64,000 bases of DNA. It comes from Escherichia coli. GTDB lineage: Bacteria; Pseudomonadota; Gammaproteobacteria; Enterobacterales; Enterobacteriaceae. Position numbers and translations under genes: made by a program. Below the pieces are notes generated by a model, which searched no databases, had not been told where the DNA came from, and saw nothing but the letters and a program-made list of their open reading frames with translations. Position 1 is the first letter of the stretch. Every line of letters begins with the position of its first letter. Below are positions 9,689 through 53,261 of the stretch, in pieces. The stretch lies in assembly GCF_003334765.1 (NCBI RefSeq), contig NZ_QOWT01000002.1; one strand, given 5' to 3'.

Positions 9689-10081
<393 letters not shown>

Positions 10082-38896: not shown

Positions 38897-39051
38897 TGCA
38901 AGGGAACTTTTTAAGATTATTGCGGAATGGCGAAATAAGCACCTAACATCAAGCAATAATAATTCAAGGTTAAAATCAATAACTTATTCTTAAGTATTTG
39001 ACAGCACTGAATGTCAAAACAAAACCTTCACTCGCAACTAGAATAACTCCC

Positions 39052-39144
39052 GCTATCATCATTAACTTTATTTATTACCGTCATTCATTTCTGAATGTCT
39101 GTTTACCCCTATTTCAACCGGATGCCTCGCATTCGGTTTTTTTT
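39052..39144 (+). ncRNA. micF: MicF antisense sRNA (represses ompF translation)
   Basis: 93-nt sequence GCTATCATCATTAACTTTATTTATTACCGTCATTCATTTCTGAATGTCTG...CGGATGCCTCGCATTCGGTTTTTTTT ending in an intrinsic terminator; divergent from ompC. Confidence 0.9.
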
Positions 39145-42800: not shown

Positions 42801-42994
<194 letters not shown>

Positions 42995-43000
<6 letters not shown>

Positions 43001-45844: not shown

Positions 45845-46010
45845 AGGGGCGAAGCTCCGCCTCAGGTGACCGATGGAGTGTGGTTAAGGTAGCGGTAAAA
45901 GCGTGTTACCGCAATGTTCTCTCTTCTCTGGAATATGATACACCGCCGAGAAATCATCACCTTAACCTCTGATAATCGTCATATACCGGACAAGACTAGT
46001 GGATTTCAGC

Positions 46011-47837
46011 ATGCATTATATGAAGTGGATTTATCCACGCCGCTTACGCAATCAAATGATCCTGATGGCAATCCTGATGGTCATTGTCCCAACGCTTACT
46101 ATTGGTTATATCGTAGAAACGGAAGGACGTTCAGCAGTCTTATCTGAAAAAGAGAAAAAACTTTCTGCCGTGGTCAACCTGCTTAATCAGGCACTAGGCG
46201 ATCGCTATGATCTCTACATCGACTTACCACGTGAGGAGCGTATCCGCGCATTAAATGCAGAACTTGCCCCCATTACCGAAAATATCACTCACGCCTTCCC
46301 TGGCATCGGTGCTGGTTATTACAACAAAATGCTGGATGCGATAATCACCTACGCGCCTTCAGCGCTATATCAGAATAATGTCGGCGTTACCATTGCCGCA
46401 GATCACCCTGGTCGCGAAGTGATGCGTACAAATACCCCTTTAGTTTATTCAGGCAGGCAGGTGCGCGGCGATATTTTGAATTCAATGCTCCCCATTGAGC
46501 GTAATGGTGAAATCCTCGGCTATATCTGGGCCAATGAATTAACCGAAGATATTCGCCGCCAGGCCTGGAAAATGGATGTGAGGATTATCATTGTGCTCAC
46601 CGCTGGTTTGCTGATAAGCCTGCTGTTGATTGTCCTTTTCTCCCGTCGCCTGAGCGCCAATATTGATATCATCACCGATGGCCTCTCGACTCTGGCACAA
46701 AATATTCCCACTCGATTACCACAATTGCCCGGTGAAATGGGGCAAATCAGTCAGAGTGTTAATAACCTCGCCCAGGCACTGCGTGAAACGCGGACACTTA
46801 ACGATCTGATTATTGAAAACGCTGCCGATGGCGTCATTGCCATTGACCGCCAGGGTGATGTAACCACCATGAACCCAGCAGCAGAAGTTATCACTGGCTA
46901 TCAACGCCATGAACTGGTAGGGCAGCCTTACTCCATGTTGTTCGACAATACTCAGTTCTACAGTCCAGTACTGGATACGCTGGAACATGGCACCGAACAT
47001 GTGGCGCTGGAGATCAGTTTTCCAGGTCGTGACCGCACCATTGAACTCAGTGTCACTACCAGTCGTATTCATAACACGCACGGTGAAATGATAGGTGCTT
47101 TGGTGATTTTCTCTGATTTAACTGCCCGCAAAGAAACCCAGCGCCGCATGGCGCAAGCAGAACGCCTCGCCACACTGGGTGAGCTGATGGCTGGCGTCGC
47201 GCATGAAGTACGTAATCCGTTAACGGCTATTCGTGGTTATGTACAGATCTTGCGCCAACAAACCAGTGACCCAATACATCAGGAATATCTGTCCGTAGTA
47301 CTCAAAGAAATCGATTCAATTAACAAAGTTATTCAGCAATTGCTCGAATTTTCACGTCCACGCCACAGTCAATGGCAACAAGTCAGCCTCAATGCATTGG
47401 TTGAAGAAACTCTGGTACTGGTACAAACCGCCGGCGTACAAGCGCGGGTCGACTTCATAAGCGAACTGGATAATGAATTAAGCCCGATTAACGCCGATCG
47501 TGAACTGCTCAAACAGGTACTACTGAATATCCTGATCAATGCCGTCCAGGCTATCAGCGCACGAGGGAAAATTCGCATTCAAACCTGGCAATACAGCGAC
47601 TCACAACAGGCCATTTCGATAGAGGACAACGGCTGTGGCATTGATCTCTCGCTGCAAAAAAAGATCTTCGATCCCTTTTTCACCACCAAAGCCTCAGGAA
47701 CCGGGCTTGGTCTGGCGTTAAGTCAACGCATCATTAATGCCCATCAGGGTGATATTCGCGTCGCCAGTTTGCCGGGCTACGGCGCAACCTTCACGCTTAT
47801 TTTACCGATCAACCCGCAGGGAAATCAGACTGTATGA
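46011..47837 (+). CDS. atoS: Sensor histidine kinase AtoS
   Basis: 608 aa from MHYMKWIYPRR; TM segments, PAS-like region, H-box AHEVRNPL; the ORF-track start at 45999 is rejected. Confidence 0.92.
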   Translation: MHYMKWIYPRRLRNQMILMAILMVIVPTLTIGYIVETEGRSAVLSEKEKKLSAVVNLLNQALGDRYDLYIDLPREERIRALNAELAPITENITHAFPGIGAGYYNKMLDAIITYAPSALYQNNVGVTIAADHPGREVMRTNTPLVYSGRQVRGDILNSMLPIERNGEILGYIWANELTEDIRRQAWKMDVRIIIVLTAGLLISLLLIVLFSRRLSANIDIITDGLSTLAQNIPTRLPQLPGEMGQISQSVNNLAQALRETRTLNDLIIENAADGVIAIDRQGDVTTMNPAAEVITGYQRHELVGQPYSMLFDNTQFYSPVLDTLEHGTEHVALEISFPGRDRTIELSVTTSRIHNTHGEMIGALVIFSDLTARKETQRRMAQAERLATLGELMAGVAHEVRNPLTAIRGYVQILRQQTSDPIHQEYLSVVLKEIDSINKVIQQLLEFSRPRHSQWQQVSLNALVEETLVLVQTAGVQARVDFISELDNELSPINADRELLKQVLLNILINAVQAISARGKIRIQTWQYSDSQQAISIEDNGCGIDLSLQKKIFDPFFTTKASGTGLGLALSQRIINAHQGDIRVASLPGYGATFTLILPINPQGNQTV

Positions 47838-49219
47838 CTGCTATTAATCGCATCCTTATTGTGGATGATGAAGATAATGTTCGCCGTATGCTGAGCACCG
47901 CTTTTGCACTACAAGGATTCGAAACACATTGTGCGAACAACGGACGCACAGCATTACACCTGTTTGCCGATATTCACCCTGATGTGGTGTTGATGGATAT
48001 CCGCATGCCAGAGATGGACGGCATCAAGGCACTAAAGGAGATGCGCAGCCATGAGACCCGGACACCCGTTATTCTGATGACGGCCTATGCGGAAGTGGAA
48101 ACCGCCGTCGAAGCGCTACGCTGCGGAGCCTTCGACTATGTTATTAAACCGTTTGATCTCGATGAGTTGAATTTAATCGTTCAGCGCGCTTTACAACTCC
48201 AGTCAATGAAAAAAGAGATCCGTCATCTGCACCAGGCACTGAGCACCAGCTGGCAATGGGGGCACATTCTCACCAACAGCCCGGCGATGATGGACATCTG
48301 CAAAGACACCGCCAAAATTGCCCTTTCTCAGGCCAGCGTCTTGATTAGCGGTGAAAGCGGCACCGGGAAAGAGTTGATTGCCAGAGCGATTCACTACAAT
48401 TCGCGGCGGGCAAAGGGGCCGTTCATTAAAGTCAACTGCGCGGCGCTGCCGGAATCGTTGCTCGAAAGTGAACTGTTTGGTCATGAAAAAGGTGCATTTA
48501 CTGGTGCACAAACCTTGCGTCAGGGATTATTTGAACGAGCCAACGAAGGTACTCTGCTCCTCGACGAAATTGGCGAAATGCCGCTGGTACTACAAGCCAA
48601 ATTACTACGCATTCTACAGGAACGGGAATTTGAACGGATTGGCGGCCATCAGACCATAAAAGTTGATATCCGCATCATTGCTGCCACCAACCGCGACTTG
48701 CAGGCAATGGTAAAAGAAGGCACCTTCCGTGAAGATCTCTTTTATCGCCTTAACGTTATTCATTTAATACTGCCGCCTCTGCGCGATCGCCGGGAAGATA
48801 TTTCCCTGTTAGCTAATCACTTTTTGCAAAAATTCAGTAGTGAGAATCAGCGCGATATTATCGACATCGATCCGATGGCAATGTCACTGCTTACCGCCTG
48901 GTCATGGCCGGGAAATATTCGAGAGCTTTCCAACGTTATTGAACGCGCCGTCGTGATGAATTCAGGCCCGATCATTTTTTCTGAGGATCTTCCGCCACAG
49001 ATTCGTCAGCCAGTCTGTAATGCTGGCGAGGTAAAAACAGCCCCTGTCGGTGAGCGTAATTTAAAAGAGGAAATTAAACGCGTCGAAAAACGCATCATTA
49101 TGGAAGTGCTGGAACAACAAGAAGGAAACCGAACCCGCACTGCTTTAATGCTGGGCATCAGTCGCCGTGCATTGATGTATAAACTCCAGGAATACGGTAT
49201 CGATCCGGCGGATGTATAA
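47834..49219 (+). CDS. atoC: Sigma54-dependent response regulator AtoC
   Basis: 461 aa; receiver ILIVDDEDNVRRML; AAA+ Walker A GESGTGKE; GAFTGA sigma54-contact motif; C-terminal HTH; 4-nt overlap with atoS. Confidence 0.95.
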   Translation: MTAINRILIVDDEDNVRRMLSTAFALQGFETHCANNGRTALHLFADIHPDVVLMDIRMPEMDGIKALKEMRSHETRTPVILMTAYAEVETAVEALRCGAFDYVIKPFDLDELNLIVQRALQLQSMKKEIRHLHQALSTSWQWGHILTNSPAMMDICKDTAKIALSQASVLISGESGTGKELIARAIHYNSRRAKGPFIKVNCAALPESLLESELFGHEKGAFTGAQTLRQGLFERANEGTLLLDEIGEMPLVLQAKLLRILQEREFERIGGHQTIKVDIRIIAATNRDLQAMVKEGTFREDLFYRLNVIHLILPPLRDRREDISLLANHFLQKFSSENQRDIIDIDPMAMSLLTAWSWPGNIRELSNVIERAVVMNSGPIIFSEDLPPQIRQPVCNAGEVKTAPVGERNLKEEIKRVEKRIIMEVLEQQEGNRTRTALMLGISRRALMYKLQEYGIDPADV

Positions 49220-49230
49220 CACCAAAACTT

Positions 49231-49271
49231 GCTATGCAGAAATTTGCACAGTGCGCAATTTTCTGCATAGC
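49231..49271 (+). promoter_or_regulatory. AtoC-binding inverted repeat upstream of atoDAEB
   Basis: 41-bp palindrome gctatgcagaaatttgcacagtgcgcaattttctgcatagc (arms gctatgcagaaa / tttctgcatagc). Confidence 0.7.
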
Positions 49272-49353
49272 CGCTCATTCTCCTTATAAATCCCCATCCA
49301 ATTTATCCCTTCATATTCAATTAGTTAAATAACTAAATCCAATAATCTCATTC

Positions 49354-49369
49354 TGGCACTCCCCTTGCT
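49354..49369 (+). promoter_or_regulatory. Sigma54 (-24/-12) promoter of atoDAEB
   Basis: TGGCAC-N5-TTGCT with the GG and GC dinucleotides separated by 10 nt, about 45 bp upstream of the atoD ATG. Confidence 0.7.
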
Positions 49370-49414
49370 ATTGCCTGACTGTACCCACAACGGTGTATGC
49401 AAGAGGGATAAAAA

Positions 49415-50077
49415 ATGAAAACAAAATTGATGACATTACAAGACGCCACCGGCTTCTTTCGTGACGGCATGACCATCATGGTGGGCGGATTTATGGGGAT
49501 TGGCACTCCATCCCGCCTGGTTGAAGCATTACTGGAATCTGGTGTTCGCGACCTGACATTGATAGCCAATGATACCGCGTTTGTTGATACCGGCATCGGT
49601 CCGCTCATCGTCAATGGTCGAGTCCGCAAAGTGATTGCTTCACATATCGGCACCAACCCGGAAACAGGTCGGCGCATGATATCTGGTGAGATGGACGTCG
49701 TTCTGGTGCCGCAAGGTACGCTAATCGAGCAAATTCGCTGTGGTGGAGCTGGACTTGGTGGTTTTCTCACCCCAACGGGTGTCGGCACCGTCGTAGAGGA
49801 AGGCAAACAGACACTGACACTCGACGGTAAAACCTGGCTGCTCGAACGCCCACTGCGCGCCGACCTGGCGCTAATTCGCGCTCATCGTTGCGACACACTT
49901 GGCAACCTGACCTATCAACTTAGCGCCCGCAACTTTAACCCCCTGATAGCCCTTGCGGCTGATATCACGCTGGTAGAGCCAGATGAACTGGTCGAAACCG
50001 GCGAGCTGCAACCTGACCATATTGTCACCCCTGGTGCCGTTATCGACCACATCATCGTTTCACAGGAGAGCAAATAA
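49415..50077 (+). CDS. atoD: Acetate CoA-transferase subunit alpha
   Basis: 220 aa; family I CoA-transferase A subunit. Confidence 0.94.
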
Positions 50078-50727
50078 TGGATGCGAAACAACGTATTGCG
50101 CGCCGTGTGGCGCAAGAGCTTCGTGATGGTGACATCGTTAACTTAGGGATCGGTTTACCCACAATGGTCGCCAATTATTTACCGGAGGGTATTCATATCA
50201 CTCTGCAATCGGAAAACGGCTTCCTCGGTTTAGGCCCGGTCACGACAGCGCATCCAGATCTGGTGAACGCTGGCGGGCAACCGTGCGGTGTTTTACCCGG
50301 TGCAGCCATGTTTGATAGCGCCATGTCATTTGCGCTAATCCGTGGCGGTCATATTGATGCCTGCGTGCTCGGCGGTTTGCAAGTAGACGAAGAAGCAAAC
50401 CTCGCGAACTGGGTAGTGCCTGGGAAAATGGTGCCCGGTATGGGTGGCGCGATGGATCTGGTGACCGGGTCGCGCAAAGTGATCATCGCCATGGAACATT
50501 GCGCCAAAGATGGTTCAGCAAAAATTTTGCGCCGCTGCACCATGCCACTCACTGCGCAACATGCGGTGCATATGCTGGTTACTGAACTGGCTGTCTTTCG
50601 TTTTATTGACGGCAAAATGTGGCTCACCGAAATTGCCGACGGGTGTGATTTAGCCACCGTGCGTGCCAAAACAGAAGCTCGGTTTGAAGTCGCCGCCGAT
50701 CTGAATACGCAACGGGGTGATTTATGA
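50077..50727 (+). CDS. atoA: Acetate CoA-transferase subunit beta
   Basis: 216 aa; contains the SENG region typical of CoA-transferase B subunits; start overlaps the atoD stop. Confidence 0.94.
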   Translation: MDAKQRIARRVAQELRDGDIVNLGIGLPTMVANYLPEGIHITLQSENGFLGLGPVTTAHPDLVNAGGQPCGVLPGAAMFDSAMSFALIRGGHIDACVLGGLQVDEEANLANWVVPGKMVPGMGGAMDLVTGSRKVIIAMEHCAKDGSAKILRRCTMPLTAQHAVHMLVTELAVFRFIDGKMWLTEIADGCDLATVRAKTEARFEVAADLNTQRGDL

Positions 50728-52046
50728 TTGGTCGCATATCGCGTTTTATGACGCGTTTTGTCAGCCGGTGGCTTCCCGATCCACTGATCTTTGCCATGTT
50801 GCTGACATTGCTAACATTCGTGATCGCGCTTTGGTTAACACCACAAACGCCGATCAGCATGGTGAAAATGTGGGGTGACGGTTTCTGGAACTTGCTGGCG
50901 TTTGGTATGCAGATGGCGCTTATCATCGTTACCGGTCATGCCCTTGCCAGCTCTGCTCCGGTGAAAAGTTTGCTGCGTACTGCCGCCTCCGCCGCAAAGA
51001 CGCCCGTACAGGGCGTCATGCTGGTCACTTTCTTCGGTTCAGTCGCTTGTGTCATCAACTGGGGATTTGGTTTGGTTGTCGGCGCAATGTTTGCCCGTGA
51101 AGTCGCCCGGCGAGTCCCCGGTTCTGATTATCCGTTGCTCATTGCCTGCGCCTACATTGGTTTTCTCACCTGGGGTGGCGGCTTCTCTGGATCAATGCCT
51201 CTGTTGGCTGCAACACCGGGCAACCCGGTTGAGCATATCGCCGGGCTGATCCCGGTGGGCGATACTCTGTTCAGTGGTTTTAACATTTTCATCACTGTGG
51301 CGTTGATTGTGGTGATGCCATTTATCACCCGCATGATGATGCCAAAACCGTCTGACGTGGTGAGTATCGATCCAAAACTACTCATGGAAGAGGCTGATTT
51401 TCAAAAGCAGCTACCGAAAGATGCCCCACCATCCGAGCGACTGGAAGAAAGCCGCATTCTGACGTTGATCATCGGCGCACTCGGTATCGCTTACCTTGCG
51501 ATGTACTTCAGCGAACATGGCTTCAACATCACCATCAATACCGTCAACCTGATGTTTATGATTGCGGGTCTGCTGCTACATAAAACGCCAATGGCTTATA
51601 TGCGTGCTATCAGCGCGGCAGCACGCAGTACTGCCGGTATTCTGGTGCAATTCCCCTTCTACGCTGGGATCCAACTGATGATGGAGCATTCCGGTCTGGG
51701 CGGACTCATTACCGAATTCTTCATCAATGTTGCGAACAAAGACACCTTCCCGGTAATGACCTTTTTTAGTTCTGCACTGATTAACTTCGCCGTTCCGTCT
51801 GGCGGCGGTCACTGGGTTATTCAGGGACCTTTCGTGATACCCGCAGCCCAGGCGCTGGGCGCTGATCTCGGTAAATCGGTAATGGCGATCGCCTACGGCG
51901 AGCAATGGATGAACATGGCACAACCATTCTGGGCGCTGCCAGCACTGGCAATCGCCGGACTCGGTGTCCGCGACATCATGGGCTACTGCATCACTGCCCT
52001 GCTCTTCTCCGGTGTCATTTTCGTCATTGGTTTAACGCTGTTCTGA
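50724..52046 (+). CDS. atoE: Short-chain fatty acid transporter
   Basis: 440 aa, polytopic; 4-nt overlap with atoA. Confidence 0.92.
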   Translation: MIGRISRFMTRFVSRWLPDPLIFAMLLTLLTFVIALWLTPQTPISMVKMWGDGFWNLLAFGMQMALIIVTGHALASSAPVKSLLRTAASAAKTPVQGVMLVTFFGSVACVINWGFGLVVGAMFAREVARRVPGSDYPLLIACAYIGFLTWGGGFSGSMPLLAATPGNPVEHIAGLIPVGDTLFSGFNIFITVALIVVMPFITRMMMPKPSDVVSIDPKLLMEEADFQKQLPKDAPPSERLEESRILTLIIGALGIAYLAMYFSEHGFNITINTVNLMFMIAGLLLHKTPMAYMRAISAAARSTAGILVQFPFYAGIQLMMEHSGLGGLITEFFINVANKDTFPVMTFFSSALINFAVPSGGGHWVIQGPFVIPAAQALGADLGKSVMAIAYGEQWMNMAQPFWALPALAIAGLGVRDIMGYCITALLFSGVIFVIGLTLF

Positions 52047-52076
52047 CGGCACCCCTACAAACAGAAGGAATATAAA

Positions 52077-53261
52077 ATGAAAAATTGTGTCATCGTCAGT
52101 GCGGTACGTACTGCTATCGGTAGTTTTAACGGTTCACTCGCTTCCACCAGCGCCATCGACCTGGGGGCGACAGTAATTAAAGCCGCCATTGAACGTGCAA
52201 AAATCGATTCACAACACGTTGATGAAGTGATTATGGGTAACGTGTTACAAGCCGGGCTGGGGCAAAATCCGGCGCGTCAGGCACTGTTAAAAAGCGGGCT
52301 GGCAGAAACGGTGTGCGGATTCACGGTCAATAAAGTATGTGGTTCGGGTCTTAAAAGTGTGGCGCTTGCCGCCCAGGCCATTCAGGCAGGTCAGGCGCAG
52401 AGCATTGTGGCGGGGGGTATGGAAAATATGAGTTTAGCCCCCTACTTACTCGATGCAAAAGCACGCTCTGGTTATCGTCTTGGAGACGGACAGGTTTATG
52501 ACGTAATCCTGCGCGATGGCCTGATGTGCGCCACCCATGGTTATCATATGGGGATTACCGCCGAAAACGTGGCTAAAGAGTACGGAATTACCCGTGAAAT
52601 GCAGGATGAACTGGCGCTACATTCACAGCGTAAAGCGGCAGCCGCAATTGAGTCCGGTGCTTTTACAGCCGAAATCGTCCCGGTAAATGTTGTCACTCGA
52701 AAGAAAACCTTCGTCTTCAGTCAAGACGAATTCCCGAAAGCGAATTCAACGGCTGAAGCGTTAGGTGCATTGCGCCCGGCCTTCGATAAAGCAGGAACAG
52801 TCACCGCTGGGAACGCGTCTGGTATTAACGACGGTGCTGCCGCTCTGGTGATTATGGAAGAATCTGCGGCGCTGGCAGCAGGCCTTCCCCCCCTGGCTCG
52901 CATTAAAAGTTATGCCAGCGGTGGCGTGCCCCCCGCATTGATGGGTATGGGGCCAGTACCTGCCACGCAAAAAGCGTTACAACTGGCGGGGCTGCAACTG
53001 GCGGATATTGATCTCATTGAGGCTAATGAAGCATTTGCTGCACAGTTCCTTGCCGTTGGGAAAAACCTGGGCTTTGATTCTGAGAAAGTGAATGTCAACG
53101 GCGGGGCCATCGCGCTCGGGCATCCTATCGGTGCCAGTGGTGCTCGTATTCTGGTCACACTATTACATGCCATGCAGGCACGCGATAAAACGCTGGGGCT
53201 GGCAACACTGTGCATTGGCGGCGGTCAGGGAATTGCGATGGTGATTGAACGGTTGAATTAA
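52077..53261 (+). CDS. atoB: Acetyl-CoA acetyltransferase (thiolase II)
   Basis: 394 aa; active-site Cys in [10 protein letters not shown]; C-terminal CIGGGQG thiolase motif. Confidence 0.96.

Follow-up and report, generated by a model that had tools for sequence, protein, structure and literature searches.

How is the atoDAEB operon of Escherichia coli switched on, and which parts of the DNA between atoC and atoD carry the signals for it? This question is raised by a 195-bp intergenic spacer that lies within a 64-kb stretch of E. coli DNA (the whole stretch analysed, hereafter the window). Our analysis indicates, with a probability of about 95%, that this spacer corresponds to the sigma-54-dependent promoter region previously described for E. 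coli atoDAEB. Both the promoter, atoDp, and the AtoC enhancer upstream of it were already known, and what is added here is a cross-genus footprint of the spacer, a proposed position for the IHF site and a number of side observations on the locus and its surroundings.

Genes flanking the atoC-atoD spacer

The 351 bases around the feature match E. coli K-12 MG1655 with 100% identity, and the annotation there reads rcsC / atoS-atoC / atoD-atoA-atoE-atoB / yfaP. Of 5426 complete E. coli genomes, 3924 carry the segment. The spacer of 195 bp separates the atoC stop codon TAA (49217-49219) from the atoD start codon ATG at 49415. On its upstream side, atoS (45999-47837, + strand) was assigned by the NCBIfam AtoS equivalog (997 bits against a cut-off of 646) and by the RefSeq annotation of the identical K-12 DNA; its open reading frame as listed begins at GTG, and the RefSeq start lies slightly further downstream. 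The adjoining atoC (47834-49219, + strand) encodes a 461-aa response regulator of the NtrC family of sigma-54 enhancer-binding proteins. AtoC matched the NCBIfam equivalog NF008469 over its full length (1-461) with 1004 bits (cut-off 714), and all other enhancer-binding-protein equivalogs scored below their own cut-offs. Further Pfam analysis revealed a Response_reg domain (7-115, 1e-31), a Sigma54_activat domain (145-311, 2e-75), an AAA_lid_14 domain (317-393) and an HTH_8 domain (415-454, 3e-14). A Walker A motif, GESGTGKE, is located at aa 173, and the GAFTGA motif at aa 220-225 (nt 48491-48508). The domains, the equivalog score and the motif all agree with the sequence-only reading, in which AtoC had been taken for an NtrC-family sigma-54 activator carrying GAFTGA.

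On the downstream side, open reading frames, NCBIfam matches and RefSeq annotation define the atoD-atoA-atoE-atoB operon (49415-53261, + strand). Its products are the alpha and beta subunits of an acetate/acetoacetyl-CoA transferase, a TIGR00366-family membrane protein and a thiolase, and AtoD reached 445 bits with its NCBIfam equivalog (cut-off 315).

Conserved blocks in the spacers of Escherichia and Citrobacter

When one genome per species was scanned with AtoC, orthologues were obtained from a divergent Escherichia (90% AtoC identity) and from five Citrobacter species (83-86%), and the resulting footprint set comprised seven orthologous atoC-atoD spacers from Escherichia and the five Citrobacter species. 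After alignment of these spacers, mean pairwise identity was computed for each block. It was 0.90 in a palindrome at 49231-49271, where 31 of 41 columns were invariant, 0.49 in spacer segment A, 0.75 in the ATTCAAnnnnTTA block at 49315-49327, and 0.47 in spacer segment B. Further downstream, the identity was 0.81 in the -24/-12 element (with GG, GC and their spacing invariant in the seven orthologues), 0.90 in the first 18 nt of the 5' UTR (49381-49398) and 0.84 in the Shine-Dalgarno region (49399-49414).

The geometry of these elements was kept in the seven orthologues despite the drifted spacer sequence. The distance from the palindrome centre to the GG of the -24 element was 104-107 bp, that from the palindrome centre to the IHF-like block was 64-66 bp in 7/7 spacers, and that from the -12 element (TTGC) to the ATG was exactly 46 nt in 7/7 orthologues. 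Similarly, the differences among E. coli alleles down to 94% identity were confined to the spacer segments, the N5 and a single base (49373), and there were none in the palindrome, the IHF-like block or the GG/GC.

The palindrome downstream of atoC as the AtoC-binding site

The palindrome begins 11 nt past the atoC stop codon TAA and consists of two 20-nt arms, complementary at 18 of 20 positions (90%), around one central base. The 41-bp inverted repeat that had been claimed between atoC and atoD is therefore confirmed to the base, at 49231-49271. In the 64-kb window, it is the sole inverted repeat with 20-nt arms, at least 18 of 20 matches and a loop of 0-5 nt; 200 random sequences from a first-order Markov model contained none of such quality, and 6e-4 would be expected analytically per window. 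The inverted repeat is clearly far beyond chance. Moreover, when at most 3 mismatches were allowed, the half-site consensus GCTATGCAGAAWWTTGCRCA matched the two arms alone in the window (0.06 expected). Among 84 loci, it was found only in the ato loci of Escherichia and Citrobacter, always as an inverted pair. The 73 loci whose enhancer-binding proteins are more distant (L008-L080, AtoC-like, at most 56% identity) all lacked it, so that they contribute no footprint information. Position 12 of the half-site is A in Escherichia and T in Citrobacter; as it is changed in both arms, the dyad is kept.

The protein that binds this site is known from published work. The left arm, GCTATGCAGAAATTTGCACA (49231-49250, + strand), is AtoC half-site 1 of the enhancer, or upstream activating sequence (UAS), and the right arm, TGCGCAATTTTCTGCATAGC on the + strand and GCTATGCAGAAAATTGCGCA on the - strand (49252-49271), is half-site 2. 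Table 5 of Pilalis 2011 (PMC3118216) gives GCTATGCAGAAATTTGCACA (+, -184 to -165) and GCTATGCAGAAAATTGCGCA (-, -163 to -144), counted from the atoD start, as ChIP-positive AtoC sites. With the ATG at 49415, these offsets translate exactly to 49231-49250 and 49252-49271, and the letters are identical. AtoC binding to the palindrome, as proposed in the sequence-only reading, is thus upheld, both arms being published ChIP-positive sites (PMC3118216), and AtoC occupancy of the half-sites is established in the literature. In addition, a passage of that paper describes an experimentally verified 40-bp palindrome, citing Matta 2007 for binding and ChIP, and attributes footprinting and mutagenesis of the palindrome to the same study. 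According to this passage, which again cites Matta 2007, inducibility by acetoacetate, binding of AtoC and sigma-54-dependent expression are all under the control of the palindrome.

A strong inverted repeat just behind a stop codon could also function chiefly in the RNA, where a 3' stem-loop would terminate the atoSC transcript or make it more stable; the repeat would then not be a protein-binding enhancer. Indeed, the RNA fold of 49231-49271 is stable (-23.3 kcal/mol, z = -5.8, with 0 of 200 shuffles as good), and the stem starts at the same short distance of 11 nt beyond the atoC TAA. However, no T-run follows the stem (CGCTCATTCTCC), and a terminator scan finds none on the + strand there; a terminator reading of the palindrome was rejected on these grounds, although the hairpin is stable. 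The conservation also goes beyond what pairing would demand, since the repeat centre and two non-complementary positions are kept too, and the A/G asymmetry of GCACA versus GCGCA is retained in 7/7 orthologues. Moreover, the ChIP and footprinting data described in the relevant passage of PMC3118216 assign the palindrome to AtoC. A mainly RNA-level role is therefore considered very unlikely, and the palindrome may serve as a 3' hairpin in a secondary role.

The binding protein could also be a repressor or another dimeric regulator, with the palindrome as its operator and not as an activator site. A perfect-dyad site of 41 bp is equally typical of repressor operators, and the sequence alone names no binding protein for it. 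However, because the palindrome is located ~105 bp upstream of the -24 element, it is unable to occlude the polymerase. It lies directly downstream of atoC and co-occurs only with atoC orthologues, and the acetoacetate-inducible AtoC ChIP signal maps exactly to both 20-mers (PMC3118216). The probability of a repressor operator is close to negligible, and the palindrome is best regarded as the activator site of AtoC.

The sigma-54 promoter upstream of atoD

The -24/-12 element of atoDp, CTGGCACTCCCCTTGCT (49353-49369, + strand), contains an exact TGGCAC-N5-TTGCT on the + strand (TGGCACTCCCCTTGCT, 49354-49369, 0 mismatches), composed of TGGCAC (49354-49359), TCCCC as the N5, and TTGCT (49365-49369). 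The -24 GG at 49355-49356 and the -12 GC at 49367-49368 are exactly one helical turn apart. The core had been claimed as the second element between atoC and atoD; it was found there as an exact match and is also a published sigma-54 ChIP-seq motif. Over the whole window, such an exact core is only suggestive, as 0.14 occurrences are expected on both strands by chance and 13 of 100 shuffled windows contained one. For the 195-nt spacer on the atoD strand only, the expectation scaled from the window figure is ~2e-4.

Scoring against a sigma-54 position weight matrix (PWM) had been suggested as a check, and it gave a divided answer. When 41 published intergenic ChIP-seq motifs of sigma-54 (Bonocora 2015) were used for a leave-one-out PWM, atoDp ranked first in the window with 13.9 bits, which accords with the call; a score of at least 13.9 bits was found in 91% of random 64-kb sequences, which leaves the check undecisive alone. 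Moreover, 36 of the 41 training sites scored higher, the score of atoDp being lowered by its C-rich N5 (TCCCC). By the PWM alone, atoDp is weak and not above window-wide chance, and the PWM was rejected as stand-alone proof; the call rests on position, conservation and published ChIP. For genome-wide searches, this means that a sigma-54 PWM alone would miss a weak promoter such as atoDp, and that context and conservation are needed.

As a separate observation, the whole window contains fewer high sigma-54 PWM scores than first-order Markov random sequences of equal length: its best score was 13.9 bits, while the maxima of the random sequences averaged 16.1 bits. Spurious -24/-12 sites may have been selected against, or the small matrix may have produced the deficit artificially.

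Published binding data bear directly on the promoter. In Bonocora 2015 (PMC4591121), the in vivo sigma-54 ChIP-seq peak OS21 carries the motif CTGGCACTCCCCTTGCT with atoD as the downstream gene, and OS21 bears the flag 'C', which denotes experimental confirmation in EcoCyc. The peak is modestly enriched (FAT 5), and its PSSM score is likewise modest (9.39; PMC4591121). Further, genomic SELEX with the RpoN holoenzyme placed a peak in the atoC>atoD spacer (Shimada 2021, PMC8743547), and a passage of PMC3118216 citing Matta 2007 describes atoDAEB expression as sigma-54-dependent. Sigma-54 occupancy of the promoter is thus established in the literature.

Could the TGGCAC-N5-TTGCT nevertheless be a chance or non-productive sigma-54 site, with atoDAEB transcribed from another promoter? 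The window-wide figures given above, namely a PWM score within chance and low among known sites and an exact core in 13% of shuffled windows, would allow it, and many sigma-54 binding sites are transcriptionally inactive (Bonocora 2015, PMC4591121). However, atoDp is in the right spacer, on the right strand and 46 nt before the ATG, a coincidence of ~2e-4 by chance, and in Escherichia and Citrobacter alike neither its GG and GC nor the distance between them changes, in contrast to the variable N5 and flanks. No sigma-70-like promoter was detected in 49100-49500, a region that includes the spacer, and the neighbouring gene encodes a sigma-54 activator. The EcoCyc flag marks a confirmed promoter, and sigma-54-dependent expression of atoDAEB is on record in the passage of PMC3118216 mentioned above. 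A chance or silent site is exceedingly improbable, and these data point to atoDp as a productive sigma-54 promoter of the operon.

IHF-like sites between the enhancer and the promoter

The gap between the palindrome and the promoter, estimated at roughly 80 bp in the sequence-only reading, measures 82 bp and contains 69.5% A+T. Within it, the ATTCAAnnnnTTA block forms an IHF-like site, ATTCAATTAGTTA (49315-49327, + strand), with 1 mismatch to the consensus WATCARNNNNTTR and a conserved position, and the E. coli alleles examined show no variation in it. The consensus is loose and, with 1 mismatch, has 117 matches in the window. The conserved position of the block suggests that 49315-49327 is a bending site between enhancer and promoter, and the IHF-assisted looping that had been considered for this gap would fit such a positionally conserved IHF-like site. 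IHF is reportedly critical for AtoC-mediated induction. No further literature statement on IHF or on an inverted palindrome at the ato promoter was found, and neither a biosensor paper nor a MinDE paper contains details of the cis elements.

A second IHF-like match, AATGAGATTATTG (49340-49352, - strand, 1 mismatch), directly abuts the -24 element. It lies in spacer segment B (0.47 identity) and is less conserved than 49315-49327.

Predicted transcription start and 5' UTR of atoD

Two routes lead to an approximate transcription start at 49377-49380 on the + strand. The start predicted in PMC4591121, 35 nt upstream of the atoD start, corresponds to 49380 in the window, which is the motif centre +19. 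A start at 49380 would place GG at -25/-24 and GC at -13/-12, in good agreement with the -12 element having been read at about 49368. By the second route, the palindrome is said to be placed at -146 to -107 in the abstract of the 2007 study, and the start would then presumably be 49377-49378. In that case GC would fall at -10/-9 or -11/-10, which is 2-3 nt off the canonical position and the motif-based prediction but would still be compatible with the -12 element at about 49368. Over this range of starts, the palindrome is centred at about -126 to -129.

A short 5' UTR (49381-49414, + strand) follows, in which a conserved block of 18 nt (49381-49398) precedes a Shine-Dalgarno region with AGAGGGA. 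The predicted atoD mRNA begins with this block, GTACCCACAACGGTGTAT, which is conserved between Escherichia and Citrobacter to the same degree as the palindrome. A hairpin at 49381-49398 has a predicted -3.8 kcal/mol (z = +0.49), no better than shuffles, and the hairpin was therefore rejected as a demonstrable RNA structure. The conservation could be due to downstream contacts of the polymerase, to mRNA stability or to translation control.

Either of the conserved ends of the spacer might be taken to add a second layer of control, in which the palindrome is also the 3' stem-loop of the atoSC mRNA or 49381-49398 is a post-transcriptional element. An atoSC stem-loop of this kind would couple the stability or termination of the regulator mRNA to AtoC occupancy. 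Such a layer is superfluous for explaining the data and is considered unlikely; enhancer-dependent sigma-54 transcription remains the preferred reading of the spacer.

Proposed activation mechanism of atoDAEB

Starting from the observed elements, their non-random occurrence and conservation, and the domain architecture of AtoC, a mechanism can be proposed for this promoter. It is modelled on the established enhancer-dependent sigma-54 systems of the NtrC/NifA type. In the uninduced state, sigma-54 RNA polymerase would bind 49353-49369 as a closed complex that is unable to open alone. Acetoacetate would be sensed by AtoS, which would then phosphorylate AtoC, and phosphorylated AtoC would oligomerise on the inverted half-sites at 49231-49271, with their centre at about -126 to -129. 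Looping would take place in the A+T-rich stretch of 82 bp, the bend being most likely made by IHF at ATTCAATTAGTTA, about -60. In the loop geometry envisaged here, the AAA+ ring of AtoC would meet sigma-54 through its GAFTGA loops, and ATP hydrolysis would open the promoter, with transcription probably starting ~35-38 nt upstream of the atoD ATG.

The locus analysed here and atoDp with its AtoC palindrome in E. coli K-12 (Matta 2007, J Bacteriol 189:6324; Pilalis 2011; Bonocora 2015) are the same, with no differences. At glnAp2 (NtrC) and nifH (NifA and IHF), dyad activator sites are located ~100-150 bp upstream of a -24/-12 promoter, and a phosphorylated REC-AAA+-HTH_8 activator reaches sigma-54 through a DNA loop; promoters of the nifH type have an IHF bend between the activator sites and the -24/-12 element. 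The ato system shares with glnAp2 and nifH the upstream dyad site and the REC-AAA+-HTH_8 activator. In contrast to the NtrC systems, its signal is acetoacetate via AtoS, not nitrogen status, and its half-site sequence differs. AtoC also has one composite 41-bp palindrome, whereas the NtrC/NifA systems have several separated sites. AtoC reached 476 bits with the NtrC equivalog, below the cut-off of 559.

The closest analogue of atoDp is the prpBCDE promoter. Both prpBCDE with PrpR and ato are catabolic operons for short-chain fatty acids, with an adjacent enhancer-binding protein, sigma-54 and, in ato probably, IHF, and the -24/-12 17-mers of prpB (GTGGCACACCCCTTGCT) and atoD (CTGGCACTCCCCTTGCT) differ at just two positions. 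In Salmonella, prpBCDE depends on sigma-54 and IHF (Palacios & Escalante-Semerena 2000, as cited in a passage of PMC2965739). Unlike AtoC, PrpR has another sensory domain, senses 2-methylcitrate directly without a two-component kinase and is transcribed divergently, and AtoC scored far below the cut-offs of the PrpR models.

Because atoDp is a promoter of textbook type that was mapped experimentally in 2007 and confirmed by sigma-54 ChIP-seq in 2015, the discovery value of its recognition here is small. The locus serves rather as a calibration case, both cis elements having been recovered at their exact coordinates from sequence without tools. In addition, the annotated map of UAS, IHF-like site, -24/-12 element and 5' UTR could aid the design of acetoacetate biosensors based on the atoDAEB promoter (e.g. 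PMC7618054).

Allelic variation and other features of the window

Among the complete E. coli genomes, the atoC-atoD spacer is missing from 1502 of 5426. The remaining alleles fall into classes of at least 99% identity (1989 genomes), 95-99% (1140), 90-95% (778) and 80-90% (17). The one variable base outside the spacer segments and the N5, position 49373, is just downstream of the -12 element, at about -5 to -7 from the start. It is G in K-12 (ATTGCC) and C (ATTCCC) both in the four other E. coli/Escherichia alleles that retain the position and in 5/5 Citrobacter.

A 9-bp direct repeat links the promoter to the coding region, as TGGCACTCC, part of the -24 element (49354-49362), recurs 147 bp downstream inside atoD (49501-49509). 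In E. coli strain CUVM53 (locus L081, 2501-2760), a 147-bp deletion lies exactly between the TGGCACTCC copies. The start of atoD is lost in it together with the 5' UTR and the -12 element, and the annotation of this strain lists atoD as a pseudogene. The allele is a natural null that arose from slippage on promoter sequence.

Elsewhere in the window, the second-best long inverted repeat is the A+T-rich TCGCTAACTGATTAATTATAAATCAGTTAGCGA at 13402-13442 (17/20), ~50 nt upstream of a tRNA gene (13491-13564), where it may either terminate the upstream gene or regulate the tRNA promoter. Five REP/BIME-type elements are arranged in tandem at 30501-31075, with Rfam naRNA4 at 30501-31035, and the array ends with a further REP-like hairpin, CACATCCGGCATACCATGCCGGATGTGG, at 31034-31074; two more naRNA4 copies are located at 42805-42995 on the - strand. 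Rfam also detected the MicF antisense RNA gene at 39051-39144 (114 bits) and an L25 ribosomal protein leader at 9750-9775 (47 bits), both of which are expected in this part of the K-12 chromosome.
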